64,000 nucleotides of DNA from Leucoraja erinacea (taxonomy: Eukaryota): assembly GCF_028641065.1 (NCBI RefSeq), contig NC_073387.1, positions 23,374,001 through 23,438,000 of the forward strand, in the 5' to 3' direction. Position numbers and translations under genes: made by a program. Positions 2,171 to 25,500 of this stretch are shown piece after piece (the stretch's first letter is position 1; each line of letters opens with the position of its first letter). The notes under the pieces are model-generated. The model did no database searches, was not told where the DNA came from, and saw only the letters and a program-made list of their open reading frames with translations.

Positions 2171-2423
2171 TGTATGTCTAAACTAATTTAAGCTAAACTA
2201 AACTGCCTCCATGCTGCATCTCTAAACTAAACTAGTCAAAGGCCAGGTAATTGTATGATAGAATAGGGCTGAAGGGTAGAATGGCCTCGTAAGTACTCTT
2301 CCTATAAACGCAAGTAGTTTCTCGGTAGCTGTGGCAAGTCTGAAGGGGAACTGAGCCGTGGCCGGCAGAGCTGTGTCTGGGTTTGGTCCAGCGACACCAA
2401 AGGCATTCAGACGGAGAGAGACA

Positions 2424-2455
2424 ATTGGCTGACTGTTGATTCACCAGTTGCCGGG
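2424..2455 (-). promoter_or_regulatory. Diverged duplicate X1-X2-Y module about 8 kb upstream of the CD74 ATG
   Basis: Minus strand reads CCCGGCAACTGGTGAATCAacagtcagCCAAT; paralogous to 13211-13242. Confidence 0.5.
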
Positions 2456-2905
2456 GAGAAGTCGGAGATGAAGGCGAGTTTTTGAGGTCGTAATTAAAGA
2501 GCGAGCAGCTGCAATGTGTAAAGGCAGAGAATTAACTCTTGAGCTTGCAGCTGATCTCGTAGACACAGGGAACTGCAGAATCTTTGCAGAACATGGATAG
2601 GTGATGTTTCGGATCGGGACCCTTCTTCAGACTGATGGGGATGGGGGGAAGAAAGCAGGGAGAGGTGGGGGTGGGACAAAGCCTGGTAAGTGACAGGTGG
2701 ATACAGGTAAGGGGGTTTGATTGGCAAATGGGTGGGCAGAGATAGGAAGAAGACATCTTCCTTGGGTCTGAAGAAGGGTCCCGACCCGAAACGTTGCCTG
2801 GCCATGTTCTCCACAGATGGTGCCTCTGACCCGCCGAGTTCCTCCAGCACTTTGTGTCTTCATTTTGTAAACCAGCATTGGCAGTTCCTTGTGTCTCCAA
2901 CATTG

Positions 2906-5900
2906 GAAACATAGAAAATAGGTGCAGGAGTAGGCCATTCGGCCCTTCAAGTCAGCACCGCCATTCAATATGATCATGGCTGATCATCCAAAATCAGTAC
3001 ACCGTTCCTGCTCTTTCCCCATATCCCTTGATTCCCCCAGTCCCAAGAGCTAAATCTAACTCTTCCTTGAAAACTACAAGTTTCTTGTAAGATCCCCTCT
3101 CATCCATCTACATTCCAGCGAGTGCAAGCCCAATCGACCCATTCTTTCATCATACGTCTTTTCCGCCATCCTGGAAAATAACCTGATGAACCTATGCTGC
3201 ACTCCCTCAATAGCAATATTTTCCTTCCTCAAATTAGGAGACCAAAATTGCACACAATTTTCTCACCAGGGCCCTGTCCAACTGCAGTAGGACCTCCTTG
3301 CTCCTAAACTCAAATCGTCTCGCAATGAAGGCCATTGGCTTTCTTCACTGCCTGCTATACCTGCCTGCTTACTTTCAGTGACTGATGTACAAGCACACCC
3401 AGGTCTCGTTGCATCTCCCCTTCTCCTAATCTGACACCATTTAGATAATAATCTGCAGAACATGGATAGGTGATGTTTCGGATCCTTCTTGTCCTTGCCC
3501 CCAAAGTGGATAACCTCCCATCTACCCACATTATCCAGCATCTGCCATGCTTCTGCCCACTCACCCAACCTATAATCCAAGTCACCCTGCAACCCTGTTT
3601 AGTGCTTTAGTGTGTTTTGTGCGTTGGCTGCTGCCGCTGCTGCTGTGCAGTAATTTTTACACAGCATGTGTAGAGTCGCGTATAGGAGGGATGAACTCCT
3701 TATGTGGCGACGGACAGCTTACGGAATAAAACACCATATTCCGTCTGAACTGAAGAAGCCGTTCCGTGGTTGCCGTGCAGGTGCCAGGCTCAGGGCCAGG
3801 CTAAGGGCCTGGAGGTGGAGATACAAGCCGTTTCTGCCATCGATCCTTATGGGGAACGTCAACTCATTCCCTAACAAGTGTGAGGAGTTGGAGGTCCTTA
3901 TGAAGAACCAACGGGTCTACCGTGAATGCAGTCTCATGTATTTTACCGAGACATGGCTGATGGACATCATCCCGGATTCCTGTGTGGATCTCCTCGACTT
4001 CACTTCGGTACGAGCAGATCGAGACCCGAAGGCAAGTGGGAAGATCAAAGGTGGGGGACTTGCTCTGCTTGTGAACAATAGATGGTGTAATCCAGGTCAC
4101 ATAACTGTGAAAGATAAGATCTGTTGTCGGGATATTGAGCTCCTGGCGGTTGGACTGACACCTTATTATGTACCGAGGGAGTTCTCCCACATCGTCGCCA
4201 TTATTGTTTCCATTCCTCCTCGAGCAGAGCCTGTAGTCGCATGTGACGTCATCCAAGAGACTGTCGCGAGATTACAGACCCGACACCCGGACGTACTCAT
4301 TGCCTTATCAGGGGACTTCAATCATGTGAACATCAGCCCCCACTTGTCAGGCTTCTCACAGTATGTTGACTGTCCCACAAGGCACAATAAGACACTGGAC
4401 TTGTGCTATGTCAATGTCAAGGAGGCCTATAGTGTCTTAGCCTTTCCACCGCTTGGCAAATCAGATCACAACCTGGTTTATCCAAGGCCTTCTTACAAAC
4501 CCTGTGTACTGAGACAGCCTACAACCACCTGGTCTTTCAGAAAGTGGACACCAGAGGCCAGTGAATCACTGAGGGACTGCTTTCAATGCACAGACTGGGA
4601 CATACTGATGTAGTCACAGGAATTAAACAGCTGTATGGACATCAACAGGATGGCTGAATGCATAAAGGACTACATCAACTTCTGTATGGATGCTGTTGTG
4701 CCAGTAAGAACTGTTTGTTGCTTTCCCAATAACAAACCTTGGATCACAAGCAACATCAAGAGCCTCCTAAACGAGAAAAAGGAGGTTGGTGATCGGGAAA
4801 ACATCAAGAGGTTACAGCACCACTTGAAAAGGAGTATGAAGCAGGCAAAAGGGGACTATAAAAAGGAAGCTGGAGAAGAAACTGCAGTACAACAACATCA
4901 AAGAGGTGTGGAGAGGAATGAAGACCATCACTGGCTTCAAGGAGAAGAGAAGCCAGCCGTCAGGAGACATGGACAAGGCCAATGAGTTTAACCTGTTCTA
5001 TAACAGGTTTGATCTGGTATCCCCTCCCACCTCTACAGGTGCAGCCTCTCCCCCACCATCACCTCCACGAGGCAGCCCCCCCCAACACCACAGCTGCAGC
5101 ACCTCCTATGCGGGCATCTCCTCAACTGTTCTTCACGGGGGACAAGGTGAGAGCTGAGCTGAGGAGGCTGCGTGTGCCCTGGTAAAGCAGCTGGCCCTGA
5201 TGGTGTATGTCCCAGGCTACTAAAAGACTGTGCGGCTCAGCTGGGGGAGCCGCTCCAGACCATTTTCAACCTGAGCCTCCAGTCAGGGAGGGTACGAGGT
5301 TTGTGGAAAACATCATGTCTCGTTCCTGTTCCCAGAGCAGGGCGGCCGACCGAGATCAATGACTACAGACCGGTGGCCCTTACATCCCACATCATGAAGA
5401 CAATGGAGCGGCTACTCATTCGACTCCTGAGACCACAAGTCCAGCATGCACTAGACCCACTACAGTTTGCATACCAGGAGAACATTGGTGTGGAAGATGC
5501 AGTCCTCTACAGGCTGCACCGGATCTACTCCTTTTTGGACGAACCAGGTGGCTATGTGAGGATTATGTTCTTCAACTTCTCAAGTGCGTTCAACACCATC
5601 CAACCCCTGATTCTGAATGACAAGCTTAAGAAGATGGGGGTGGATTCCACATTTATCTCCCGGATATACAACTACCTGATGAGTCGACCACAGTTTGTCA
5701 AGCTGGGGGACTGTGTCTCTGGCACAGTGGTGTGCAATGTTGGAGCCCCACAGGGAACGGTTCTGGCCCCGTTCCCCTTCACCCTGTATACAGCAGACTT
5801 TAACTATAAGTCTGACACATGCCACTAAGACTAAAGTCCTCAGCTCAGCTCTCACCTCGTCCGCCGTAAAGTCTTAGTTGTGTTCAGGATGAGACAGTTC

Positions 5901-8033
5901 TCTTCACTCCAGGCACAAAAGGAACTGGTCAAGTTCCTGTATTCCTCCTCCTGCCCGTTCCTTACAAATGCCACTATCGCTGTATCATCTGAATATTTCT
6001 GGTTAACTTTGGCAGGTCCAAGCTCCCCCTTCAGCCGGTCAACACTGCTGGGGCTGACATTGAGGTGGTGCAGACATATAAATACCTTGGAGTGCACCTT
6101 GATAACAAACTGGACTGGTCTGTCAACTCTGACTCCCTCTACAAAAAAGGCCAGAGCAGACTCTTTTTCCTCAGAAGGCTCAAATCCTTCAATGTGTGTA
6201 GTGATATGCTGCACATGTTTTACAACACTGTGGTCGCAAGTGTTATTTTCTACGCTGTTGTCTGCTGGGGCAACAGCATTAGTGAAAAAAACAACAAGAA
6301 GCTGGTCAAATTGGTTAAACGAGCTAGCTCAGTGCTGGAGGGGAGAGTAGACTCTGGGATGGATGTGCTTGAGAGGCGTATGAGGCACAAGGTGCAGGTC
6401 ATCCTGAAAAACCCCGGGCATCCCCTCCATGTAATTCTGGAGAGTCAAAAGAGCACTCGGAACAACAACCGGCTCCTCTCCCTGCCCTGTAGAACGGAGC
6501 GGTTCAGGAGATCCTTCACCCCTGCAGCCATTAGATTTTATAATTCGGACCGCTAGGCTGTAGGGGGATGCATTTTTGCAATTTTTAATTTTTAATTGTT
6601 AATTATTGGTCTTTTTAAGTATTTATTGCTCTCAGGTAGTGTCCACAGTGTATTCTATGTATTTTCTGTCTGCGTTCGTTTTGAATCTGTGGGTTTGTTG
6701 GTTGGGGGCTTCTAGACATCTGAATTTCCCTGAGGGGATCAATAAAGTATTAAAAAAAAAAAAACCTCCTAGCATCCTCCTCGCATCTCACACTGCCACC
6801 CAGCTTTGTGTCATCCGCAAATTTAGAGATGTTACATTTAATTCCCTCGTCTAAATCGTTAATATACAATGTAAACAACTGGAGTCCCAGCACCGAGCCT
6901 TGCGGCACCCCCCTAGTCACTGCCTGCCATTCTGAAAAGGACCCATTAATTCCTACTCTTTGCTTCCTGTCTGCCAACCAGTTCTCTATCCATGTCAATA
7001 CCCTACCCCCAATACCATGTGCTCTAATTTTGCACACTAAGCTCTTGTGTGGGACCTTGCCAAACGGTTTTTGAAGGTCCATATACACCACATCCACTGG
7101 CTCTCCCTTATCCATTCTATTGGTTACATCCTCAAAAAATAGCAAAAGATTATTCAAGCAGGATATCCCCTTCATAAATCCATGCTGACTTTGACCGATC
7201 CCATCATTACTTCACAAATGCGCTGTTATAACATCTTTAATAATCGACTCCAGCATCTTCCCCACTACCGACGTAAGGCTAACTGGTCCATAATTCCCAG
7301 TTTTCTCTCTCCGTCCTTTCTTAAAAATGATCACCAATGCATCCACGATTTCTTGGGCCACCTCCTTGAGTACTCTGGGATGCAGACCATCTGGCTCTGG
7401 GGATTTATCTGCCTTCAGTCCCAACAGATTACCTAACACCATTTTGACTAATGTGGATTCCCTTCAGTTCCTCCCTCTCACTAGACCTTCAGTCCCCTAG
7501 TATTTCCAGGAGATTCTTTGTATCTTCCTTAATGAATACAGAACCAAAGTACTCGTTTAACTGTTCTGCCATTTCCATGTTTCCCATTATAAATTCACCC
7601 GTCTCTGTCTGTAAGGGATCTCCATTCGTCTTCACTAATCTTTTCCTTTTTTACATACATCTAGTGACTTTTAGTCAGTTTTTATATTCCCTGCAAGCTT
7701 TCTTTCATGCACCCCCCCCCCTCTTAATTAACCCCTTTGTCCTCCTCTGTAGAGTTCTAAATTTCTCCCAGTCCTCTGGTTTGCCGCTTCTTCTGTATTA
7801 TACATTTATATGCCTTTTCCGTGGCTTTAACACTATCCTTGACTTCCCTCGTCAGCCATGGTTGAGCCCAGTTTTGTTTTTTCGCCAGACAAGGATGTCC
7901 AATTTCTAGAGTTCGTCCATGCGGTCTTTAAATCTTCGCCATTGCATCTCCACCGTCAACCCTTTAAGTATAATTTGCCTGTCTATCCTAGCCAATTCCC
8001 ATCACGTACCTTCAAAGTCTCATTTATTCAAGT
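2906..8033 (-). mobile_element. Degenerate CR1 LINE (ORF2), split by a Rex1/Babar insertion at about 3596-6763
   Basis: RT fragments on the minus strand ([35 protein letters not shown]); gaaacatagaaa tail at 2906; the sequence resumes in register after 6763. Confidence 0.9.
3596..6763 (+). mobile_element. Near full-length Rex1/Babar-type non-LTR retrotransposon (APE + RT), disrupted
   Basis: APE motifs (GNVNS, FTETW, GDFNH, TLDLCY, SDH) in 3666-4613; RT motifs (KAAGPDG, LDPLQFAY, SSAFNTI, GAPQG) in 5172-5828; C-terminus 6065-6556; AATAAA + poly(A) at 6741-6763; stops, frameshifts and an internal inversion. Confidence 0.92.
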
Positions 8034-8813
8034 TTACACAAAAGGCTGTGAGATAAAGGAGTGAAGGAGAGAAGAAATACAAAATGTGAAGCCAGAGGAG
8101 GGAATATAGGTGGAAGGGGACCAGGAGGAGGGGAAGGGTTGTTGAAAGTTAGTTGCCTAAAATTCAAGAGAGAGTTAGATTTAGCTCTTAGGGCTAAAGG
8201 AACCAAGGGATATGGGGGAAAAGCAGAAACGAGGTACTGATTTTAGATGATCAGCCATGATCATATTGAATGGCGGTGCTGGCTCGAAGGGCTGAATGGC
8301 CTACTCCTGCACCTGTTTTTCTATGTTTCTAATTGGACATTTCACTGTTCATATCAAAAGACACAAAATGCTGGAGAAACTCAACGGGTCAGGCAGCATC
8401 TCTGGAGAAAAAGGATGGTGACATTCCAGGTCGGGACCCTTCTTCAGACTGAGAGTAGGGGGTGGGGGATTGAAGAGCTGGAGGTGAGAAAAGAGCAGGA
8501 CTAATCAGGACCGACCTCAGGCAGGATGGTGCCCTGGTTGGCCCAGTGTTGGCTAGGGAAGGTGTGATCAAAGATCATAGATATTTGGATGCAATCTCAA
8601 GAGGGAAACAATATGGAGAACTGTGGAACCGGTAATACGACCAAGATGGAGGAAGGGGGGGGGGGGAGGAGATTGTAAAAAATTAGTTAAAATTAGAGAA
8701 TTCAAAATTCATACCGCTGGGTTGTAAGCTACCCAAGTGGAATGTGAGGTGCGGTTCCTCTAATTTGCGTGTGGTGGTTGGATTGTTGAGTTAGTGCGGC
8801 CATGCAGAAGATT

Positions 8814-8851
8814 CTGATTGGCGAGCAGTGGTTGAGTCATCAGTTGCCAGG
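8814..8851 (-). promoter_or_regulatory. MHC-II-type X1-X2-Y module (RFX / CREB-AP1 / NF-Y), copy upstream of CD74
   Basis: Minus strand reads CCTGGCAACTGATG-ACTCA...CCAATCAG. X1 is 12/14 identical to HLA-DRA X1 CCTAGCAACAGATG; Y core CTGATTGG is on the + strand. Confidence 0.8.
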
Positions 8852-8948
8852 TGAAGTCCGCTCTTTAAGAATGAGTTTTGTGTCGATGACTCACAAGTTG
8901 CAATAGCTGTTTGTCTGCTTTAGTCTTTCCTTTGAGTTTGCATGTAGG

Positions 8949-9376
8949 CAGTGCTGGATTTACGTATAAGCTAAACAAGCTATAGCTTAGGGCCCCCACT
9001 TTCGAGGGGGCCCCCCGAAAAAATTGATGGGCCTCGAGGTCTAGGGGGGCCTCCAGCCAAGGCAGAACACCTACCGTTCAACTCTGGGCGGCCCCCCCTC
9101 TCTATCTCTCTCTCACCATCTCCCCCAGCTATCCGTGTCCAGGCCGCCGGGCTCCGCTCGCTCCTCATCCGCCAGCACGGCAGGCCGCCTTGCACATGCG
9201 CATAACCACGGCCAGCACATCATCGGCTGCCCTGCGCAGGTACACTGCAACGGCAACTGGTCGGTGCTGGGCACTTTCTCCCTCGCTTTGAATTGTGGGA
9301 GATTTGGCCGCCATGGCTGTTGGGGGCCTCACAAGTGGAACAGCTTAGGGCCTCTCTTCATCTAAATCCGCCACTG
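8949..9376. mobile_element. Non-autonomous hAT-like element
   Basis: Imperfect TIRs CAGTGCTGGATTT / AAATCCGCCACTG; 8-bp TSD catgtagg / gatgtagg. Confidence 0.75.
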
Positions 9377-10254
9377 GATGTAGGGTTAGGATTATTCTAT
9401 GCACAGGTACTATTGCTTTGTTTTGCACCCTTGGGGAAAAGGTTCTGACTGTCTACCCTGTCTATGCCTCTCTAGATTTTATATACGGCTATCTCGTCTT
9501 CCCTCAGCCTTCGAATTTCCAGACAGAGAAAACTATCCAAGACTGTCCAACCTCTCCTGAAGCTAATACGCCCCAATCCATGCAGCATCCTGGTGAAATT
9601 GCTGTAAATCTACCAGCCCCCCTAAATCCCTATAATCAGTCTGAACCCAATTAACCTACAAACCCGTACGTTTGTGAAATTTTGGGAGGAAACCGGGGCA
9701 TCCAGAGAAACCCACGTGGTCACAGGGTGAACGTGCAAACTCCACACACTCAGCACCCGTGGTCAGGACCAAACCCGGGTCTCTGGCACTGTGAGGCAGT
9801 GGCTCTACCCTTTGCGCCACTATTCCTCCAGCAGTTTGTGTTGTTTATTTTTGTATCTGCAGTTCCTAGTTTCTCTAGATGTGTACAAGACCTGTGTCTG
9901 TACCGTAGTTTAGTTTAGTTTGGCTTAGTTTAGTTGAGTTTATTGCCACGTTTACTGAGGTACAGCAAAAAGCTTTTTTTTTGTTGAGTGCTATCCAGTC
10001 GGCGGAAAAACTATACATGATTACACTCGAGCCGTCAACAATGTACAGATACAGGATACAGGGAATAATGTTTAGTTCTCGACCTGAAATATCACCTATT
10101 CCTTTTCCCCTGAGACGCTGCCTGACCGACCCTTGATGGTCCAAGGGTCTCCAATGGGGTAGAAGGGAGGTCAGGACTGCCCTCCAGTTGGTGAGAGGGT
10201 GGTTCAGTTGCCTGATAACACAATTAGACAAACACATTGCTGGTGCTTATATTC

Positions 10255-10325
10255 GAGGGCGGGTTTATATATGGTGAAGTACGGCAGGGACTTTCCAAGC
10301 TGCAGGAGAGCCAACTTCCTCGTTT
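10255..10325 (+). promoter_or_regulatory. CD74 proximal promoter: GC box, TATA-like, NF-kB, PU.1/Ets
   Basis: GGGCGGG 10257-10263; TATATA 10266-10271; GGGACTTTCC 10287-10296; ACTTCCTC (GAGGAAGT on minus) 10314-10321. All lie within 180 bp of the ATG. Confidence 0.7.
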
Positions 10326-10433
10326 TGGCTTTGTTGAGATTAAAACGTAGTGCCTGCCTTGCCCTGCACGCAGTCTGCACACACATCTCTCTAAGAGCTC
10401 TCCCTTCAGTCGACAGTGAAGTCCACCGTAACC

Positions 10434-10546
10434 ATGTCAGCGAACGAGCAGCAGAACTCTTTGCTGCGAGACTCTCAACAGGATATAGCCAGCAACTCGG
10501 ATGTGGAGGTGAGAGGGGCTACCCCTGCTGCAGTGCCAGTCCACAG
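10434..10546 (+). CDS. CD74: CD74 exon 1 coding part: cytoplasmic tail MSANEQQNSLLRDSQQDIASNSDVEVRGATPAAVPVH(R)
   Basis: accATG Kozak context; in-frame TAA upstream at 10392; acidic-dileucine-like EQQNSLL; donor CAG|GTAAGG; phase 2 matches exon 2. Confidence 0.88.
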
Positions 10547-13500
10547 GTAAGGTGTTAACCAAAGTCACTTTCCCATTCCCGATTCCCGATTCCCAGAGAG
10601 CAGGTCAATGATTCCCGGGTTCTGGGGCCTCACGGATGGACCGCAACTAGGGTTGCCAACTTTCTCACTCCCAAATATAGGACAAACGGTCAAAATAAGG
10701 AACAAATTCCCGACGGCAATTCGTTGACCGACCTGGCCATGGCTGGGTGAATGATGAGTTGATTGCACACACAGCCCAGCCGGTGGGTCAGCTGAGGAGT
10801 TTTGGCCTGGGCGCGCAACGTCGCGCACAAAGTCCGGCACCCCATACACTCATGGATTGACGATCGGCCATGAGAAGGAGGGGTGGTGGTGTTGGCGGTA
10901 AGCGAAGGTCCGAAGGTCGGACAGCTGGCCGGGCTGCCGACCGACCAGGCCACGGGCGGGGCTGGACGCGGCGCTCTGACCCGACAGTCCCCTCGACCCG
11001 AGTAGTAGCAGTCAAATACGGGACAAGGGCGGTCCCGTACGGGACAAACCAATTTAGCCCAATATATGGGATGTCCTAGTTAATACGGGACAGTTGGAAA
11101 ACTTAACCGCAACTGTCCAGCACACTTTAGTTTATTGTCACGGGTTCTGAGGTGCAGTGAAAAGCTGGAATCCCAGACCATCACTCAAACCAACCTCCCT
11201 TCCATTGACAGTATACAGATACACTTCACGCTGCCTCGGCAAGACCACCAGAATAATCAAGGGCCAGTCTTTAGTAGATACAAGGGAGGGGAGGGGGCGG
11301 GATTGATAGGCAGTTGGTTGGAACAAAGGCCAGAGACAAAAGCAAGTGTGACATAAAAGGATTGAAGTTGCAAATTGTGAAGCTAGAGGAAGGAATGTAG
11401 GTGAAAGAAGAGGGGGGGGGGGGGGGGGGGGGGGAAAAGAAATGGGGGTGGGGGTGTGGGGATGAAAGGGAGTGGGGTTTAATAGGAGATTATCTAAAAT
11501 TGGAGAATTCAATGTTCATACCATTGGGCGTAAGCGACCCAAGCTTAAATATAGAAACAAGTTTATTGAGTGCTGGAGGAACAGTATCTCTGTATCTCCG
11601 GAGGGAATGTACAGGCGATGTTTTGAGTCGGGACCCTACTTCACACTTCTGCTTTCAGTTCATTGATGCATGAGATGTTTTGGGTCTAATTCAGAGAGTT
11701 AAAATAGTAAACTTTCAGGGGAAAACATAAAATAGGAAGTGTGATTTGCAGTCTGACAAAGCAATCTAAATATCAGATGTAGCCGAGGAGATTAGTTTAG
11801 CTTGGCATCATGGTCGGCACAGATATGGTGGGCCGAAGGGCCTGTTCCGATGCTGTACTGTGCTGTATTAGTCACTGATCCTTCTGATTTTGATTAATTG
11901 TTTGAAGGAAATCTGTGGGCGGTCACGGTGGCACAGCAGTAGAGTTGCTGCCTTGCAGCAAAATGCAATGCCAGAAACCCGGGTTCGATCACGACTACGG
12001 GTGCCGTCTGTATGGCGTTTGTACGTTCTCCCCGTGATCGGCGTGGGTTTTCTCCAAGGTCTTCGGTTTCCTCCCACGCTCCAAAAACGTAGGTTAATTG
12101 GCTTGATAAAAATGTAAAATTGTCCAAGTTGGCGATATGCAGAGTACTGCCCTGCTGACTACAACATTCAGAAGGTTCAGAAGGTTGTGGCTGTGTCATC
12201 CTTTATGTTTTAAGATTCTGGAAGTTTGAAGTTTAGTTGCTACATGTACCAAGGTACAGTGAAAAGCTTTTGTTGCGTGCAAACCAGTCAGTAGAAAGAC
12301 TATACCTGATTACAATCAAGCCGTCTACAGTCTACAGATGAAGGGCATAACGATTATTGCAAGATAAAGTCTAGTAAAGTCTGATTAAAGATAGTCCGAC
12401 GGGCATAGATAGAGTGGATGTGGAAAGGATGTTTCCACTGGTGGGAGAGTCTCGGACCAAAGGTGATAGCCTGGTCGCTCTTTTAGAAAGGAGGTGAGGA
12501 GGAACTTCTTCATTGGCCAGAGGGTAGTTAATTTGTGGAATTGCCACATAGGGCCGTGGAGGCCAAGTCAGTAGATTTATTTAAGGCAGAGATAGACAAA
12601 TTCCTGATTAGAATGGATGTCAAGGGCTATGTGTGAAGGCAGGAAAATAGGGTTAGGAGGCAGAGATCAGCCATGATTTAGTGAGCTGGGAGGTCAGGAC
12701 TGCTCTCTGGTTGGTGTTAGTTGTGGACACAGCCCAGACCATCACACAAATAATCCTCCCTTCCATTGAATCCAAGACCACCAGCATAATCAAGGACCAG
12801 TCTCACCCTGGTCACTCAATCTTCTCCCCTCTCCCATCAGACGAGAGGTACAGAAGTGTGAAAACGCACACCTCCCGATTCAGGGACAATTCCTTCCCAG
12901 CTGTTATCGGACAACTGAATCATCCTATCAACACCCAGAGAGTGGTCCTGACTTCCCATCTACCTCATTGGAGACCCTCGGACTATCTTTAATTGGAATT
13001 TAGCTTGCTCTAAACATTATTCCCTTTATCCTGTATCTGTACACTGTGGACAGCTTGATTGACATCATATATAGTCTTTCTACCGACTGGTTAGCATGCA
13101 AGAACCTTTCACTCACTGTATGTTGGTACAAGTGACAAAGACCGAACTATCTCCAATAGGTCCACATCGCCTGCCGAGCGACACCCAAGGCATTCAGAGG
13201 GAGAGAGACAATTGGCTGACTGTTGACTCACCAGTTGCCAGGGAGAAGTCGGAGATGAGGGAGAGTTTTGAACCAGGATGTCATTAAAGAGCGAGCAGCT
13301 GCAGTGTACAAAGGCAGATAATTAATTCCAGAGCTTGCAGCTGATCTCATAGACACAGGAAACTGCAGATGCTGGAATCTTGAGCAAAACACAAAGCGCT
13401 GGAGTAACTTTCTCGGAAAGTTGCTTTCCGAGAATTATATCTACTATAAATTCAAATTCACACATGCACTGACTACACCGCCCAAACACGGACTTCCATC

Positions 13501-16500
13501 TGTATATATGTATATATGTATGTAGCGCCGCAGAATTTGTGCACCTATTCCCCCCCCCCCCCCCCCCCCCCATCTCCCTTCTGTTTTTTTTTTTTTTTTC
13601 TGTTTCTTGTTTTTTTTTTGTGCTAAATTGTATGTATGCACTGAGTACGAGCAGCTTTCAGTTTCACTGTACATGTATAGTGACAATAAATGGCATATCT
13701 ATATCTATATCTAACTCAGCAGGTCAGGCGGCATCTTTGCAGAACATGGATAGGTGATGTTTCGGGTCGGGACCCTTCTTCAGACTGATGGGGATGGGGG
13801 GAGAAAGCAGGGAGAGGTGGGGGCGAGACAAAGTCTGGCAAGTGGCAGGTGGATACAGGTAAGGGAGTTTGATTGGCAAATGGGTGGGCAGAGATAGGAA
13901 GAAGACATCTTCCTTGTGTCTGAAGAAGGGTTCCGACAGATGGTGCCTCTGACCCACCGAGTTACTCCAGCACTTTGGGTCTTCATTTTGTAACCCAGCA
14001 TCGGCAGTTCCTTGTGTCTCCAAGATTAAAAAAGGCTGCGAGATAAATGAGATGAGGAGAGAAGAAATGCAAAATGTGAAGCCAGAGGAGGGAATATAGG
14101 TGGAAGGGGACCAGGAGGAGGGATGGGTGAGGGGGAAGGTTATTGAAAGTTAGTTGCCTAAAATTCAAGAGAGAGTTAGATTTAGCTCTTGGGGATAAAG
14201 GAATCAAGGGATATGGGGAAAAAGCAGGAACAGGGTACTGATTTTAGATGAACAGCCGTGATCATATTGAATGACATGCTGGCTTGAAGGGCCGAATGGC
14301 CTACTCCTGAACTCACTTTACCTCGGTACACATGAACTAACCAACTCCATTTCTGCCGAGCCACAGGTGGTATTCAGTGAGCATGGATTAAATTAAACTG
14401 AACTGAAAGAGGTAAAACGAGGAACTCAGCAGGTCAGGCAGCATCTGTGGAAGGGAACAGACAGACAATGATTCAGATTGGGACCCTCCTTCAGACTGAT
14501 GCAGTTGGTGGGGGCGGGACAAGGCCTGGCAACTAATAGGTAGATAAAGGGGACGGGGTTTTGTTGGCTGGAAGGGACAAAGACCAAGAGGTGAAAAGGT
14601 GACAAAAGGATGTCAGATTAAGGGATATGGGGAGGGGTGAAATGTAAAGCCGGAAGGAGGAATGTGGGTGGAAGGGGGCGGAGGGGGTGGGAAGGGGGGG
14701 GGGGGGGGGATGGTGGGAGAAATGGGTGCACATCAGGGTGGAAGAGTGGCACAGCAAAGAGAGGGGGGGGGGGGGGGGGGGAGGGGTTGTTACATAAAAT
14801 TGGAGAATTCAATGTTCATGCCATTGCGTTGGAGTCATAGAATTATAGTCATGCTGCATGGAAACAGCCCCTTCGGCCCGACTTGTCCATACCTGGATAG
14901 AATGGATGCAGAGAGGATGTTTCCACTCGTGGGAGATTCTAGGACCAGGGGGCACAGCCTCAGAATAAAAGGACGTACCTTTAGAAAGGAGATGAGGAGG
15001 AATTTCTTTAGTCAGAGGGAGGTGAATCTGTGGAGTTCTGACACAGACGGCTGTGGACGCCGTCATTGGGTATTTTTAAGGTGGAGATTGACAGATTCGT
15101 GATTTAGTAACGGTTGTCAGGGGTTATGGGGAGAAGGCAGGAGAATGGGGTTGAGAGGGAAATATAGATCTGAATGGCGGAGTACACAATGGGCCGAATG
15201 GCCTAATTCTGCTCCTAGAGCTTATAAATGTATGAATTTAAGCTGACCAAGATCTCCCATCTATACCAATTATAAACCTTGAAAGATTTACATTTCCTGT
15301 TGTGGGGAATTTCCTGTTGTTGAACTGGTTTCACGCAATAAAAACACTTTTATAATTGTGAGTCTCTGGCATTCTCTCACCAAGTGGGAGTTCTTAGAAT
15401 TAGGCTGACTGCTCTTTGATAAGGGCGGGTTGTAAGTTTACTGTGGATGGATTAGAATAGATGGTGTTGTGTTTGATGGGGCCAAAGGGCCTGTTTCTGT
15501 GCTGTCACTCTCCCTATGACTAGAGTCATACAGCATGGAAACAGGTCATTCGGCCCAACTTGCCCACACCGACCACCATGCCCCATCTACACTAGTCCTA
15601 CCTGCCCACTTTTAGGACCAGAAGGCACAGTCTCAGAGTAAAAGGACGTACCTTTAGAAAGGAGACAAGGAGGAATTTCTTTAGCCAGGGGGTGGTGAAT
15701 CCGTGGCATTCATTGCTAGAGATGGTGGTGGAGGCCTGGTCATTGGGTATTTTTAAGGAGATTGATAGGTTCTTGATTAGTATGGTGTCAAAGGTTAAGA
15801 AAAGAAGGCAGGAGAATGGAATTGAAAGGAAAAAAATAGATCAGCTATGATTGAATGGCGGAGTAGGACCGAATGGCCTAATTCTGACCCTGGTCTTATA
15901 AAACACCATAGTTAAGGAAGATTCAGGCAAAATACTGGTAAATAAGGTTAGTAAAGATGAGTGGCCAGCATGGACACGGTGGGCCGAATGGCCTGTTTCT
16001 GTGCTATGTGCGTCTATGTACCATCATCCGTTATGTGTAGGAAGGTAATGCAGAGTCCGATAAAGGGTCTCGACCTGAAACGCCACCCATTCCTCTATCC
16101 AGAGACGCTGCCTGTTCTGCTGAGTTGCTTGCTGCGTTACTCCGTCACTCCAGCACTTTGTGTTCATCTTTGGTACAAACCATCATGACTTGGACACACA
16201 CCAGGTGTAAATGTTGGAGGTTCCTCCCCATCAACACCATAGGAGTCAACAAAACCAACAGTTCATCAAGAGAAGGACTGCAGCCGTTCATGAGTGCGTC
16301 TCACCACCACTTTCTTGATGCCAGTCAGGGAGTGATCTGGAAAACATGGATATGTGACACTTTGGGTTGGGACCCTTCTTCAGACTGTTGTGGCTTGGGA
16401 AGTGTGGGTGGGGGCAGGATGGGGAGGCGGGGAGAGTAGGATGGAAAACCCCCAACACAAAACCATGGCAAATCCACCTGGCCGTTTCCCCCTTGCTCAT

Positions 16501-19500
16501 TTAACTTGACATCATGCCAACACCAACACTGTGGGCCGAAGAGCCCGCTTCGGTGTTGTACTGTTCTATGTACACTGGCCTTATATTCTCTGGAATTTGG
16601 AAGGATGAGAGGGGATCTTATAGAAACATATAAAATCCAGCCATGATCACATTGTATGGCGGTGCTGGCTCGAAGGGCCGAATGGCCTACTTCTGCATCT
16701 ATTGTCTATTGTCTATTGTCTAAAATTCTTAAGGGATTGGACAGGCTAGATGCAGGAAAAATGTTCCCCATGTATGTAAGTCCAGAACCAGGGGTCACAG
16801 TTTAAGGATAAGGGGTAGGCCATTTTGGACTGAGATAAGGAACAAGTTTATCGCCCAGAGAGTTGTGAATCTGTGGAATTCTCTGCCACAGAAGGCAGTG
16901 GAGGCCAATCCACTGGATGTTTTCAAGAGAGTTAGATATCGATCTTAGGGCTAATGGAATCAAGGGATATGGGGTAAAAGCATGAACGGGGAACTGATTC
17001 TGGATGATCTGCCATGATCATATTGAAAGGCGGTGCTGGCTCGACGGGCTGAATGGCCTACTGCTGCACCTATTTTCTATGTTTAAGAAAGAACTGCAGA
17101 CGCTGGAAAAATCGAAGGTAGACAAAAATGCTGGAGGAACTCAACGGGTGAGGCAGCATCTATGAAGAGGAGGAAAAGGCGACGTTTCAGGTCGACACCC
17201 TTCTCCAGACTGGTCGAGACCCTTCTTCTATGTTTCCATGTTAATTTTTGTGTCTACCATGATCTGTAGACACTCTCCACCTCCACCAGGGGTCAGTGGT
17301 GAGACATAAATCTATTTTCTGGAAACTCATGCAACTGTGGGGGGGGGGGGGGGTGAAGAACTGGAGCCGAGGAAAGACCAGGACCAAGCAGGAACGATCA
17401 CTAATGATTTCAGGCAGGGTCGTGCCTGGTTGTCCATTGCTGGCCAGGGAAGGTGTGAGGGGAATGGACTGGGGATGTTTCGGGCCAGGACCTTCGTCAG
17501 ACTAGTGGTGTAAACTGTTGGTCCTTGCCCTCCAAGCGATGGGTTTGTCAGGATGGAAGGTTGACCATGAATCCTGTAATTCATGTCCTCCCTCCCCTCC
17601 ACTCGCACTACCTGTCTCCCCACATTAAGTCAATGGAATAAAGCATGGGTTAGGGATGCAGAATCCAAGGCATAAAGTCAGGAGAGGGGGCAGATGGTAT
17701 GAAGGAGATGGAAACAGTTGTCTTGGAAGGGCCACTAACGTCCCTCAGAGGAAGAAATCTGCCTTCCATACCCTGCCCGGGCCTACACCCACCATCGTGG
17801 GTGACGCTTAACTTCTCTAGACTGGGTCTCACGAGGAACAATTAGTGATAGTCAATAAATCCAACGATGCCAGACATCTGAACAATTTACGCTTGGACCA
17901 CCAAGGCCTACGGGGTCTCCCGGTTGCTAAGGGGTATAAATAAGGGGTAAGCCATTTAGAACGGAGACGAGGAAACACTTTTTCTTACAGAGAGTTGAGA
18001 GTCTGTGGAGGCCAGTTCTCTGGATACTTTCAAGAGACAGCTAGATAGGGCAGAGTCAGGGGATATGGGGAGAAGGCAGGAACGGGGTACTGATTGGGGA
18101 TAATCAGCCATGATCACATTGAATGGCGGTGCTGGCTTGAAGGGCCGAATGGCCTATTCCTGCAACTATTGTCTTTTATCTATTGCGGACCAATTCTTAA
18201 CTCGTCTTCCATCCATATCCCTGGATAAGGGAGTTGGGACCAGTGTAGATTGGGCATCTTGGTCGGCATGGATGAGTTGGGCTGAAGGGCCTGTTTGCGT
18301 GCTGTGTAGGATTCTGGAGAGTAGCTGAGAGACTTTGGAAGGAGGGAAATGAGAGAGAGAGAGAGAGATCCTGACATCTATTGGATTCACAGCTCATTGT
18401 TATTTGTTGTGCCATCCAGTGGATGTTTTACCAGTTCCACCAGTTTCACTTCCAGGGAATTACCCCATTACTAATAATAATTAATTGACACAGACCTTCG
18501 GAAAGTCCCTTGCAAATTACAGGGAAACTTCCTGGACAAATTCACTGCGTCGCACATCACTAATACCACCAATCATACCCAAATCCCTCCAAAAGTTGTG
18601 GACTTTATCTGGCTCTAAACATTATTCCCTTTAACTTGTATCTGTACACTGCAGATGGCTTGCTTGTAATCATGTACAGTTTTTCCACTGACTGGATAGC
18701 ATGCAACAAAAGCTTTCCACTGTACCTCGGTACACGTGACAATAAACTGAACTGAACGGCAATGGGACTAGTGTAAATGAGTGATAGTGACTGGGTGGGC
18801 TGAAGGGCCTGTTTGTATGTTGTGTCTCTCTGTGGATCAGGGGCCATACACACACCTCTCAGATGTTGTACATGGCCAGTGAACCATTGAGGTGCTCCCC
18901 CTCCTCACCATTGCCGTCTGCCTTCCAGGAGCCTGAGCTGGGGCCGAGGGCTGCTCTACGCTGGCGTATCCATCCTGGTGGCCATGCTCATCGCCGGCCA
19001 GGTGGTCGGCATCATGTTCCTGATGAAGCAACAGGACAAGATAGACGGGCTGCAGAAGACCACGAGACGTCTTGAGAGCAAGTACTCGGCGAGCCGCGGA
19101 CCATTCAGTAAGCAGAGCCGCCAGCAATGATCAACTTACAATGATCAACTGATTGGGTGGTTGATTGGGTGATTCATTGATTTATTGAGTGCTTGATTGA
19201 TTGACATTAATTGATTAATCTGTTTAATTAGATGATTGATTGATCAATTTACTGATTGATCAATTTATTGGTGACTGATTGATTCATTAATTAAATGATT
19301 CATTGGTTGATTGGGAATTACATAGAAACATAGAAAAATAAAAATTAGGTGCAGGAGTAGGCCATTCGGCCCTTCGAGCCTGCACCGCCATTCAATATGA
19401 TCATGGCTGATCATCCAACTCAGTATCCTGTACCTGCCTTCTCTCCATACCCCCTGATCCCCTTAGCCACAAGGGCCACATCTAACTCCCTCTTAAATAT

Positions 19501-22500
19501 AGCCAATGAACTGTGGCCTCAACTACCTTCTGTGGCAGAGAATTCCAGAGATTCACCACTCTCAGTGTGAAAAATGTTTTTCTCATCTCGGTCTTGAAGG
19601 ATTTCCCCCTTATCCTTAAGCTGTGACCCCTTGTCCTGGACTTCCCCAACATCGGGAACAATCTTCCTGCATCTAGCCTGTCCAACCCCTTAAGAATTTT
19701 GTAAGTTTCTATAAGATCCCCCCTCAATCTCCTAAATTCTAGCGAGTATAAACTGAGTCTATCCAGTCTTTCTTCATATGGAAGTCCTGACGTCCCAGGA
19801 ATCAGTCTGGTGAACCTTCTCTGCACTCCCTCTATGGCAATAACGTCCTTCCTCAGATTTGGAGACCATAACTGTACGCAGTACTCCAGGTGTGGTCTCA
19901 CCAAGACCCTGTCCAACTGCAGTAGAACCTCCCTGCTCCTATACTCAAATCGTTTTGCTATGAATGCTAACATACCATTCGCTTTCTTCACTGCCTGCTG
20001 CACCTGCATGCCTACCTTCAATGACTGGTGTACCATGACACCCAGGTCTCGCTGCATCTCCCCTTTTCCTAATCGACATTCCTTGATTGATTAATTGGCT
20101 GTGGATTGATTGACCGATTGATTAGTTGATTAATTTATTTGTTAATTGATTGATTGATTGCCTGATGATTGGTCCACTACTTGCTTGTTGGCACCATAAG
20201 GCAGCAGCTCTACCCGCTGCGCAACCATTGGGCTGGGGTTGTGAGGGGATTTCAAAAAAAACATTGGCCCACTCAGTTTGTTCCTCATTCTGTTTATTCG
20301 CCTGCACTGAATTTCCCCAGAACCCTCTCTGAGCTAAGTAAAATCCTCAACGCACACACACACACACTCTGAGGGGGGAGCCCCACGGTGAGCTGTTTGC
20401 TAGAATTGGGGATCCGCCTGGCTTTAGAAGTATGATTCACTTTGGTTTTCATCAGCTCAGATTAGATACACCGGTGCTGTTTATTCTGCAATAGAACATA
20501 GTACAGCATAGCACTGGAACAGGCCCTTCGGCCCACAATGTCCATGCCAAACATGATGGCAAGTCAAACTAATCTCCTCTGCCTGCACGTGATCCATATC
20601 CCGACATTCCCTACACTTCCAGGTGCCTATCTAAAAGCCTCTTAAACACCACTAGCATATCTGCCTCCACTACCCACCCCTGAAAGCGCCTTTCAGGCAC
20701 CCACCACCCTCTGTGTGTAAAAAAAAATCCTTCAAACTTTAGAATCATAAATCATACTGTAGAATCTCCTTTCAACTTTCCCCCTCTCACCTTCAAGCTG
20801 TGGCATCTAGTGTTGTACATTTCCATTCAGGGATAAAGGTTCTGACCCCATCTATGCCTCTGATAATTTTATATACTTCTATCATGTCTCTCCCAAGCAT
20901 CTTGAGGTTCCAGAGAAAACAATCCAAGTCTGTCCAACCTCTCCTTGTAGCTGAAACCCTCCAATACAGGCAGCATTCCGGTGAACAGGGAAAAGAGCGG
21001 GGGAGGGGGGGGGGGGGGGGGGGGGGGGATTGGGGGAAGGGAGAGGGGGGTGAGGGTTGTGAAGCTGCATCTACAGTTCCATGTGTCTCCATTTTTTTCT
21101 TGTATCTTTTTATCCTTCAGGACCGAAGCCAATCATGCACCTGAGACCGATGATGATGGATCTGCCCATTTCCTACATCAACCCCAATGCCGACGCACCA
21201 AAGGTGACTTCTCGCCGAGACATTATGGAATATTAACTCCCCTTCCCATTCCCACACCGACCTTTCTGCCCTGGGCCTCCTCCGTTCCCCTCATTAAGTC
21301 TTAAAGGAATAAAGCAAGGGTTCGGGATTCAGAAGCTAAGACACAAAGGCTGTGGAGGGGGCAGATGGAATGAGGTTCATGTTCATGTCCTTAAATCATA
21401 GAAACAGAATTAGGCTATTTGGCCATTCAAGTCGTGGCTTGACTTCATTCAATCATTCAATCATGGCTGATCTATCTTTGCCTCTCAATCCTATTCTCCT
21501 GTCTTCATCCCACATCTTCACAGCTTAAGGATACGGGGGAAATCCTTTAAAACCGAGATGAGGAGAACTTTTTTCACACAGAGAGTGGTGAATCTCTGGA
21601 ACTCTCTGCCACAGAGGGTAGTTGAGGCCAGTTCATTGCCTATATTTAAGAGGGAGTTAGATGTGGCCCTTGTGGCCAAGGGGATCAGAGGGTATGGAGA
21701 AAAGGCAGGTACGGGATACTGAGTTGGATGATCAGCCATGATCATATTAAATGGCGGTGCAGGCTCGAAGGGCCAAATGGCCTACTCCTGCACCTAATTT
21801 CTATGTTTCTATGTTTCTATATCCTTTGACACCCATAGTAAACAAGATCCGTCTTAAAAATATTAATCAATGGCCTTCTTAGCCGACTGTGGCAATGAAT
21901 TCCATAGATTCACCACCCTCTGGCTAAAGAAATTCATCCTCATCTCTATTTGAAAGCTACATCCTTTTATTCTGAGCGAAAACATCCTCTCCACGTCCAC
22001 TCGGTCCAGGCCTTTCACAATTTGGTGAGTTCAATGAAGGCTCCCCCCATCCTCCTAAACTCCAGCGAGTGCAGGCCCAGTGCCGACAAACGCTCATCAT
22101 ACGTTAACCCAATTATCCCCGGGATCATTGTCGTAAACCTCCCCTGGACCCTCTCCAACGCCAGCACTTCCTTCCTCAGATCTGACGCCCAAAACTAGTC
22201 ACAATAACGGAGATGGAAGCAGTTGGTCTAGGTGTAGAGATAGGTAGCATGGTCCACTCATCTGGTGTCCATGGATGGGATGGGTACCATGGATGTCCTT
22301 GGAAGGTCCACTAACATTCCTCAGAGGAGGAAATCTGCCTTAGCGACCCTGCCTGAGCCTACACCCGCCAACGCGGTTAACGTCTCTCGAGACTGGGTTC
22401 CATGGAGCTGTATTTGTCACTTGTGCAACTGCACTGTGAAATTCATTTCGCATTATTACACATGCGGGCGCCACCATGTTTTGCCGCAAAATCCAAAAGT

Positions 22501-25500
22501 CCAAAGTCCCGTCGACCCGATTGACTCAATATATCGGAGCCGTTCCCCCGAACCTGTATCCCTCTCCTCACCCCGGCCATCTTTGTGACCCTGGGGGGCC
22601 TCCTGCAGCCCACCTTGAAGGGGCTGGAGGCATTCCCCCGGTTCACCCACCCACCGCCCCTCGCTCCTCGCATCCAACGTCTCCAGTGGCTTCTTCCCGG
22701 TCACACCCATCGACAAAGCCTTCGGGCGGGCACTGTGGCCATGGCACCTCCCACAAGGTACACAATATACAAGGGCAATTAGGGGTGGGCAACAAATGCT
22801 GGCCTTTGGTGCCACATACCGACATCCGAACACTTGTGCTTGTTCCGCCAAGGCCTGCTGGAACTAAACATTTTAACTCCCATTCCCGCTCCCACACTCA
22901 TTCCTGGGCCTCCATCATTGCCCGAGTGAGGCCACATGCAAACTGTAGGAACAACAGCTCATGTTCCGCTTGGGTAGCTGACAACCCAGCAGTATGAACG
23001 TTGAATTCTCCAATTTTAAATCATACCCCCCTCTCTCTTTTGAGTGTTCCACCCCTACCCCTAGTTATTCCTACCACCATCTCCCAGCCACCCCCTCAGT
23101 CACCCCTTCCCCTACCCCGTACATTCATATCCCATCCCTGAGATTCCCATTTCACTTTTATCCCCCCCCCCCCCCCCCCCCCCCAGTTCCCTTCCACCCA
23201 CATCCCTCCCTCTGACTTTATGCTTCACTCCGCCTTTTCTCTCTTTCTCTGACTCCCCTTTGTCTCTTTTCAGCTTTTATCACTTTCTCCCACCAATCTG
23301 GCCATCACTCCCCCCCCCCCCCCAATCTGTATCCACCTCTCACTCACCAGGTTTTGTCCCACCCCCACCTCTCTCTTCCAGCTTCCCCCCCATCCGTCAG
23401 CCTGAAGAAGGGTCCCAATCGGGAAAGGTCACCTGTCCTTTCCCTCCACAAATGCTGCCTGACCCACTGAATTCCTCTTGCACTTTGTGTTTTTGGTTTA
23501 GTTAACTTTAGTTTAGTTTAGTTTATTGTCACGTGTACCGAGGTACAGTGAAAAATGTTCAGTGCAAGATAAAGTCCAGTCAAGTCTGATTAAAGATAGT
23601 CTCCAATAAGGTAGATGGTAGCTCAGGACCACTCTTTAGTTGTTGATAGGATGGTTCGGTTGCCTGACAACAGCTGGGAAGAAACTGTCCCTGAATCTGG
23701 AGGTGTGTGTTTTCACACTTCTGTACCTCTTGCCTGATGGCAGCACTGCAGGAACTGCAGGTATCTTGTGTTGCCAGACGTAACTGGACCAGTGTGTGTT
23801 GGTTGGGCGATAACGGAAATGTCACCGTCTTTATCCTTGTCTTTCCTCAGCTTCCCACACCTAAATCTACAACTTCGCCAATGACCGTGATGGAACAAGT
23901 TCATCAGCTGCTGAAGGTACCTCTCCAACCTATTACAGAACAGGTGGCACGGTGGCACAGCGGGAGAGTTGCTGCCTCCCAACTCCTGAGACCTGGGTCC
24001 GATCCTGACTACGGGAGCTGGGTGTGAATGTGTGGGGTTTGCACGTTCTTCCTGGGACTGCGTGGTTTCCTCCGGGTGCTCCTGTTTCCTCCCAAACTCA
24101 AAGACGTGCGGGTTTGGATAATCCCTCGTGTCGGATAGAAAACAGCTGATTAGTGGTCGGCATGGACTCAGTGGGTCAAATGGCCTCTTTCCACGCTGTA
24201 TCTCTAAACTGAAACTAAACTTTATCTTAAAATTATTTGGAACAAAGGGTGGAGTTTATTTAATCTTGTCACGTCTACTGAGATACAATGAAAAAAGCTG
24301 TGTACTGCATGCTATCCAGGAACTGGTGATATATGAGTACAACCATGCCACACACAAGTACAGTGGATGGTTTAGTTTCGACTCGCAGCATGGAAATGGG
24401 CCCTTCGGCCCACTGAGTCCATGCCGACCATCGATCACCCGTTCACACGTTCTTTCTTGTCCCACTTTCTCATCCACTCCCTGAACCTACAATCTGACAG
24501 GCCTTTGGGATGTGTGTGGAAACTGGAGCACTCGTGAGGCAGCAGCTCTACCCGCTGCGGCCTCCCCCCCCTGTTGCCCCCACGTTGACGGGACCTTTTG
24601 CCCGATCGTTAGGCTGATCGTTACTGCTCATTTTTTCCTCTCAGGATGGAAACCGAACAGAAGGGATTCCGGAAATGATTGGAAGCTTCTCCGACAACCT
24701 CCAGCTGCTGAAACAGAATCTGAACGAATCCGACTGGAAGGTTGGTGTTTAATTGTCCAACGTGAGAATTCCTCCAGCACTTTGCGTACGCCGCAAGACT
24801 CGAGTATCTCCAGATCCTCGTGATGAGGAGGAATTTATTTTGCCAGAGGGTGGTGAATCTGTGGAATTTATTGCCACAGATGGTGGTGGAGGCCAAGTCA
24901 TTGGGTATTTTTAAAGCGGAGATTGATAGATTCTTGATTAGTGAGGGTGTCAAAGGTTACGGGGAGAAGGCAAAAGAATGGGGTTGAAAGGGAAAGATAG
25001 ATCAGCCACAATTGAATGGTGGAGTAGACTCGATGGGCTGAATGGCCTAGTTCTGCTCCTATGATATGAACTAGTTCTGCTCCTGTGGTATGAACCTCAA
25101 TCATATCCACAAGATACAGGTAGCGGGAGCTCTATCGTTGTGTGATAGTCTTGGCTACGTCCAACACCTTAAACTGACTGGACTATCTTGGTCGGTGAGG
25201 TTGCTGTAGGTCAGGATGACAAGGAAATTGAAGAGCATGCAGTGAAGACTTTGTCCTCAGGCAGACAGAAAAGATAGATCAGCCGTGATTGAATGGTGGG
25301 GTAGACTCGATAGGCAAAATGGCCTAAATGTGCTCCTATGTCTTATGAACATGAACTATTCACTGCCAACCCCTGAAATATGAACCTGGTGACGTGTGTT
25401 TTTTTTGGTGTTTTTTAGGATTTTGAATCTTGGCTGCAGAACTGGTTCCTCTTCCAACTTGTTCAGCCTGAGAAGAAGACTGCACCAACCCAGGCACCCC

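Follow-up and report, generated by a model that had tools for sequence, protein, structure and literature searches.

The stretch of DNA considered here, a window of 64,000 nucleotides from the skate Leucoraja erinacea (contig NC_073387.1, positions 23,374,001 to 23,438,000; G000:C11:23374001-23438000 within the 2.19 Gb of genome that was searched), carries the gene for the invariant chain, CD74, and, before and within this gene, short modules of the X1-X2-Y type known from genes of the major histocompatibility complex (MHC). The gene is identified as CD74 by its translated exons: Pfam MHC2-interact, MHCassoc_trimer (two exons) and Thyroglobulin_1 match four of the seven exon translations scanned, the thyroglobulin exon is 96% identical to CD74 of Amblyraja radiata, and the A. 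radiata protein can be mapped one exon at a time across 10434-28396. The modules and the parts of the gene are as follows, in window coordinates unless a scaffold is given.

Module Ma: G000:C11:23367462-23367520, minus strand, about 6.5 kb upstream of the window start.
Module Mb: G000:C11:23372664-23372723, minus strand, about 1.3 kb upstream of the window start.
Module M1: 2424..2482, minus strand, with a reversed Y box ATTGG at 2424-2428, X2 TGATTCA at 2437-2443, X1 at 2444-2455 and an S-position element at 2476-2482.
Module M2: 8814..8879, minus strand, with a reversed Y box CTGATTGG/CCAATCAG at 8814-8821, X2 TGAGTCA at 8833-8839, X1 at 8840-8851 and an S-position element at 8873-8879.
Predicted core promoter: 10257..10346, plus strand, with a GC box at 10257, TATA-like motifs at 10266 and 10338, an NF-kB motif at 10287 and an Ets motif at 10314.
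CD74 coding exon 1: 10434..10546, plus strand, by exon mapping.
Module M3, in CD74 intron 1: 13211..13269, minus strand, with a Y box ATTGG at 13211-13215, X2 TGACTCA at 13224-13230, X1 at 13231-13242 and an S-position element at 13263-13269.
CD74 exons 2-9 (transmembrane segment, CLIP, trimerisation, linker and thyroglobulin domain): 18927..29275, plus strand, by Pfam and mapping, exon 9 being read from the sequence.

An initial annotation had described M1, M2 and M3 as three reverse-oriented MHC-type modules flanking CD74 exon 1, and its motifs, coordinates, minus-strand orientation and Y-to-X2 spacers (8, 11 and 8 bp) all check out; the GAAGTC it included in each module is present but lies just beyond the limits it gave, at 2458, 8853 and 13245. 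The three modules are real, yet they are not three independent elements, and the cluster has five members rather than three. Mb was located by a search with the classical geometry and Ma by a scan of the 50 kb upstream of the window; found with fixed patterns, both are out of sample relative to M1, M2 and M3. The X1 (RFX) box CCYRGYAAC is matched without mismatch in all five, with X2 TGANTCA, a motif resembling a cAMP-response element (CRE) or AP-1 site, directly 3' of it, and M2 is the best match overall. All five oppose the direction of CD74 transcription, at 1.6-17 kb upstream of the ATG or, for the intronic one, 2.8 kb downstream. At about 8887-8900, directly 5' (on the X strand) of the M2 S-position element, there is also a second X2 with half an X1.

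The genome-wide background sets this cluster apart. The X1-X2 core taken without regard to Y, CCYRGYAACNRNTGANKCA, has 43 genome matches against four for the reversed control, and these divide into five at CD74 (within 20 kb, on one strand), nine on small MHC-type scaffolds, one on scaffold C570 and 28 scattered. At the scattered rate 0.0003 matches would be expected per 20 kb, against the five at CD74; P is ~1e-6 for the two out-of-sample modules and ~1e-16 for the cluster. The geometry common to M1, M2 and M3 has three matches in the genome, all at CD74, with none for the reversed control, although this pattern was built post hoc from the same modules and speaks to rarity, not independence. 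The five modules rank first in 124 kb by a position weight matrix (PWM) trained on the nine MHC-scaffold modules, a ranking that is partly circular, those nine having been found with related patterns. Core, PWM ranking and low copy number together bear out the assignment to MHC-type X1-X2(-Y) modules. We take the set to be a real, locus-specific cluster and, judged by its motifs, a flipped-Y variant of the known SXY module.

Part of the cluster arose by duplication. Self-alignment paired 2390-2579 with 13177-13369 (88%), 2580-2904 with 13733-14027 and 8040-8312 with 14030-14312; on this alignment M1 and M3 belong to the two copies, 7.7% diverged, of a single duplicated block of ~1.1 kb, short interspersed elements (SINEs) included, and a reading as three independent modules was rejected on the same grounds. 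The block is laid out as follows.

Left part of the duplicated block (module, unique flank and SINE pieces): 2390..2904, plus strand, by self-alignment.
About 5.1 kb of retroelement-derived DNA that splits the upstream block: 2905..8039, no strand assigned, from the resumption of the block at 8040 and repeat-level depth; element types within it were read from the sequence without a classification tool.
Right part of the duplicated block (SINE): 8040..8312, plus strand, by self-alignment.
Intronic copy of the duplicated block, ending inside a SINE: 13177..14312, plus strand, by self-alignment.

As the alignment reads, the 5.1 kb of repeats entered the upstream copy after the duplication. Within them, 3595-6762 is a low-copy insertion of 3.2 kb that resembles a retroelement, has an A-rich tail and is nested within another repeat; depth over it climbs toward the 3' end in each of the four runs. 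The upstream copy of the block runs on into unique DNA at its left and its last SINE reaches the full end, whereas the intronic copy stops within that SINE; for this reason M1 is probably the parent and M3 the derived copy. Contigs of all four other organisms compared cover M1 with its unique flank (depth 28-44) and the positions of M2 (depth 22-104), and M3 is covered in organisms B and E, that is, in at least two of the four. The duplication would thus predate at least some splits among these organisms and be of an age of the same order as their divergence, which, judged without a clock, would make it far younger than the jawed-vertebrate root. Outside the motifs, the flanks of Ma, Mb, M1 and M2 have no convincing similarity (two of 27 flank comparisons at p~0.03), and an older paralogy among these four beyond their motifs was rejected. 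Because the flanks are unlike apart from M1/M3, the lineages must be old or independent; the five same-strand modules, by this comparison, represent four independent lineages (Ma, Mb, M1/M3 and M2) within 20 kb.

The Y box is where the CD74 modules depart from those at the MHC genes of the same genome, which lie on the following scaffolds.

C1416: class I exons, TAP-family ABC exons and class IIA exons.
C1159 and C1256: class I exons.

Among the nine modules on the MHC scaffolds, ATTGG stands 18 bp after X2 in seven, ATTGC at 18 bp in one and ATTGG at 21 bp in one; with eight of nine at 18 bp, the classical geometry exists in this skate. At CD74 the Y spacers from X2 are 6 (Ma), 4 or 8 (Mb), 8 (M1), 11 (M2) and 8 (M3), and Y is reversed relative to the ATTGG of the MHC modules in Ma, M1, M2 and M3, in agreement with the inversion noted at the outset; Mb also offers an ATTGG at spacer 11. 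CCAAT is perfect in M1, M2 and M3. A CAAT at spacer 4-12 occurs in five of five CD74 modules against one of 25 other inspected matches. M2 and the modules upstream of class IIA have almost the same extended X box. The class IIA-upstream modules, at G000:C1416:455146-469593, number four; they are of the classical X1-X2-Y form, arose by tandem duplication and lie 42-56 kb 5' of the class IIA alpha-1 exon, the X2 of the last one having decayed, and near-identical copies are present on C1112; a leader exon was looked for behind them and none was found, and a search of the genome for MHC class IIB gave no match. A TAP-like gene is also preceded by paired classical modules, at distances of 3.3 and 8.3 kb (G000:C1416:192676, 197692), and two modules 100 bp apart stand upstream of a class I alpha-1 exon (G000:C1416:229567, 229668).

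In the S position the initial annotation had seen no convincing S box, which is correct for the classical S motif, absent from the CD74 modules, but overlooked a fixed element at -25 to -27. AAAC(A/T)C is found 25-27 bp 5' of X1 in five of five CD74 modules against none of 25 other inspected matches. The shared upstream 7-mer has six identical columns in the four independent modules, against a maximum of four in 1500 random sets, and without Mb it still beats 1499 of 1500 random three-sequence sets. The pattern AAACWC-N17-22-X1-X2 has ten matches in the genome, none for the control: the five CD74 modules and five TAP-type MHC modules, the latter so nearly identical that they amount to one independent confirmation. 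No class IIA-upstream or class I module was matched in this exact search. The TAP-type modules carry in addition an AACCT-type S motif at -21, which is absent at that position in the CD74 modules.

The position of M2 relative to the promoter deserves comment. The nearest module to the gene, M2, ends ~1.6 kb from the ATG, or ~0.4 kb once repeats are removed; the interval holds 804 bases uncovered by repeats, of which 382 lie inside an insertion resembling a miniature inverted-repeat transposable element (MITE).

MITE-like insertion with 14-bp terminal inverted repeats and a flanking direct repeat: 8949..9376, no strand assigned, between M2 and the promoter.

Multi-copy depth was seen at 9004, within this insertion, in three of four runs. 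A motif scan of the core promoter, 10257..10346, found no X1-X2 module, and a candidate promoter-proximal X box, GTTGCC at 10207, was rejected as the end of repeat-covered DNA without an X2. For 8600-10700 no RNA record was listed. Mouse Cd74 likewise combines a core promoter, in which TATA-like, GC-box and NF-kB motifs are known, with an upstream MHC-II-like enhancer (PMC2883540). Insertions have probably pushed M2, once the promoter-proximal module, out to -1.6 kb; the module set would have grown by local duplication, with M3 as the latest copy.

The CD74 modules resemble known systems in part. Like the S-X-X2-Y module of MHC class II, served by RFX, CREB, NF-Y and CIITA, they sit at an antigen-presentation gene and have an X2 that directly adjoins X1, with pyrimidine-rich DNA on the 5' side of X1; a CCAAT-like box follows X2 at a variable distance, and AAAC(A/T)C precedes X1 at a near-constant one. 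Unlike the class II module, they have a reversed Y at 4-11 bp from X2 instead of 18 and no classical S motif. MHC-II modules typically lie <200 bp from the start (PMC2278383), in contrast to the ~1.6 kb between the ATG and the nearest CD74 module, distal S-Y enhancers being a known exception. With the NLRC5-type SXY module of class I, B2m and Tap1/Psmb9 genes (PMC4374748) they share the X1-X2 core, and AAAC(A/T)C recurs in this skate's own TAP-type modules; that type has a classical Y and the AACCT-type S motif at -21, and neither is present at CD74. The CIITA site of human CD74 has the classical XY length of 48 bp (PMC4381081 Table 1), unlike the skate modules. In the literature searched, within whose reach few subscription papers fell, there was no description of chondrichthyan CD74 regulatory modules.

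We think it probable, from the sequence, that the five modules are RFX-anchored enhancers that likely recruit CIITA, switching CD74 on with MHC class II. RFX would occupy X1, a CREB/AP-1 factor X2 and NF-Y the reversed Y, while a further factor might read the S-position element AAAC(A/T)C, and the assembly would recruit CIITA to drive CD74 together with MHC class II. A spacer of 8 instead of the classical 18 brings the Y pentamer exactly 10 bp, or one helical turn, nearer, such that the helical face might be kept. CIITA control of skate CD74 appears likely by its motifs. In mammals CD74 is among the genes that CIITA targets (PMC4381081, PMC2278383), and mouse Cd74 has two intronic enhancers bound by CIITA besides its upstream MHC-II-like one (PMC2883540). 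Such a scheme would make the RFX/CIITA switch that ties the invariant chain to MHC class II readable in a cartilaginous fish, with five named candidate enhancers at skate CD74. No divergent minus-strand gene that the modules might serve instead was found among the open reading frames (ORFs) of the 50 kb upstream, a search that misses short exons.

Let us suppose further that cartilaginous-fish CD74 uses a second functional geometry, with NF-Y flipped and one turn closer to RFX and with the AAAC(A/T)C shared with TAP-type modules. This we offer only tentatively and rather doubt. The combination of flipped Y and AAAC(A/T)C could even be an ancestral W/S code that predates the specificity split between CIITA and NLRC5. 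If true, the geometry would be a natural case in which the 'fixed geometry' rule could be put to the test, and could serve as bait for the S-box factor; the reversed, closer Y box would be a natural exception to an arrangement thought rigid, and the AAAC(A/T)C element may help to identify the S/W-box factors, stated as unidentified in PMC4374748.

Several observations weigh against the proposal that these are CIITA-recruiting enhancers. In mammals the order, orientation and spacing from S to Y are strictly conserved (PMC1802633, PMC2278383), and in human B cells XY boxes with aberrant spacing often recruit CIITA without gene regulation (PMC4381081). The Y boxes of Ma and Mb are imperfect, reading GCAAT or TCAAT, and the position of Y is not fixed: the aligned downstream test was not significant (2 observed, with 243 of 250 random sets doing as well). 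The A-run of Mb adjoins a SINE tail and may derive from it, and organism B alters the last base of the M2 S-position element (8873). The differences listed are 40 of 445, and that none of these 40 falls in X1, X2 or Y carries no weight; the listed contigs over M2 differ at two of 220 positions in organism B and 12 of 237 in organism D. Nor is the M1/M3 module conserved in excess of its flanks, with 4/59 differences (6.8%) in the module and 54/698 (7.7%) in the flanks (Fisher p=0.52).

In one alternative only M2 (perhaps with Ma) is functional, and M3, possibly also M1 and Mb, have been carried along neutrally by duplications and insertions. It is compatible with the reading we prefer as regards M2, and we consider it a somewhat improbable account of the rest. 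The lack of conservation of the M1/M3 module beyond its flanks speaks for it, as does the state of Mb, into whose Y end a SINE has inserted with a target-site duplication. Yet the core of Mb survives as a 66-bp island between SINEs, both M1/M3 differences within X1-X2 fall at degenerate positions (2440, 2453), and at a divergence as low as that of M1 and M3 the conservation test has little power.

The initial annotation had taken the bracketing of exon 1 as a sign that multi-enhancer control of CD74 is as old as jawed vertebrates, and in this form the claim is not supported: intronic M3 is a young copy of M1, embedded in SINE DNA ~92% identical between the copies. A broader version, in which the upstream plus intron-1 layout goes back to the jawed-vertebrate ancestor and has its homologues in the CD74 enhancers of mouse and human, seems to us unlikely. 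For it speaks the gene order: RPS14 lies upstream of CD74 on the same strand, ending ~9.4 kb before the window start, and the mammalian order is likewise RPS14-CD74. (Among 137 repeat-filtered ORFs of at least 55 aa in the 50 kb upstream, only RPS14 exons and mobile-element domains were recognised by Pfam, short exons being missed.) The four lineages share nothing convincing outside their motifs, so that several modules should be old. Both here and in mouse/human CD74, several MHC-II-like modules lie upstream and within intron 1; mouse Cd74 has an upstream MHC-II-like enhancer and two CIITA-bound intronic enhancers (PMC2883540), the upstream and intron-1 enhancers being credited in PMC2883540 and PMC1802633 to Zhu and Jones 1990, Moore 1998 and Krawczyk 2004. 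Against this, the sole intronic module found in the skate is a young duplicate, and beyond it neither scan nor PWM gave a strong X1-X2 site anywhere in intron 1; being a young duplicate, M3 would not be orthologous to the mammalian intronic enhancers, if the direction of copying is as we suppose. Module clusters also arise repeatedly in this genome by local duplication, with two at class I, two before the TAP-like gene and four upstream of class IIA. Since extra modules multiply so readily, a shared layout of several enhancers is weak evidence of homology with mammals.

A further alternative accepts that the sites bind RFX and a basic leucine zipper (bZIP) factor but denies them a classical CIITA enhanceosome, be it that NLRC5 takes the place of CIITA, that RFX/AP-1 act alone or that CIITA is recruited ineffectively. 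The non-classical orientation and spacing of Y fit this view, as does an S-position element shared with TAP-type modules and unmatched, by exact search, in class IIA-upstream and class I modules; in mouse the S box decides between NLRC5 and CIITA use (PMC4374748), and RFX5 and NF-Y are commonly paired at sites other than the MHC (PMC4889920). On C570, where no MHC gene was found, there is an X1-X2 array with reversed Y as well. We nevertheless regard this alternative as quite unlikely: CD74 is a mammalian CIITA target (see above), M2 hardly differs from the class IIA-upstream modules in its extended X box, and the AACCT-type S motif of the TAP-type modules is missing at -21. The C570 array itself (G000:C570:29000-29450) consists of ~8 tandem units of ~60 bp in GC-rich DNA, each with an RFX-type X box, a CRE half-site and a reversed CCAATCAG ~18 bp further on, and no host gene was recognised among 13 nearby ORFs scanned.

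That the modules match by chance or stem from a dispersed repeat is next to impossible: one such repeat, presumably a Tc1-like transposase end by its motifs, does bear a look-alike of X1-X2 (9 of the 30 genome matches inspected), but no CD74 module aligns with it, the M1/M3 block has at least two genome matches and M2 at least one, depth in the other organisms is 20-100 at the modules, as for single-copy DNA, against 1e5-1e7 at repeats, and both the clustering of five of the 43 core matches (P ~1e-16) and the AAACWC-X1-X2 search refute such a reading. The Tc1-like transposase end is a possible source of new RFX sites, and one copy of it lies ~8.3 kb upstream of the window.

Of the trans-acting factors that our proposal calls for, the three that were sought are encoded in this genome. 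CIITA lies at C20:29938670, its NACHT exon sharing 90% identity with Rhinoraja CIITA over 401 aa, RFXAP is on C6, and RFX5_N matches on C33 and C347 mark an RFX5-like gene, the match not telling paralogues apart. A search for the NACHT domain gave 81 matches genome-wide, most of them on small scaffolds, which indicates a large NLR expansion. Two of the NACHT exons, at G000:C17:5002619 and 5087381, are identical over the 135 aa printed and lie 85 kb apart, a pair that reflects either recent duplication or assembly duplication.

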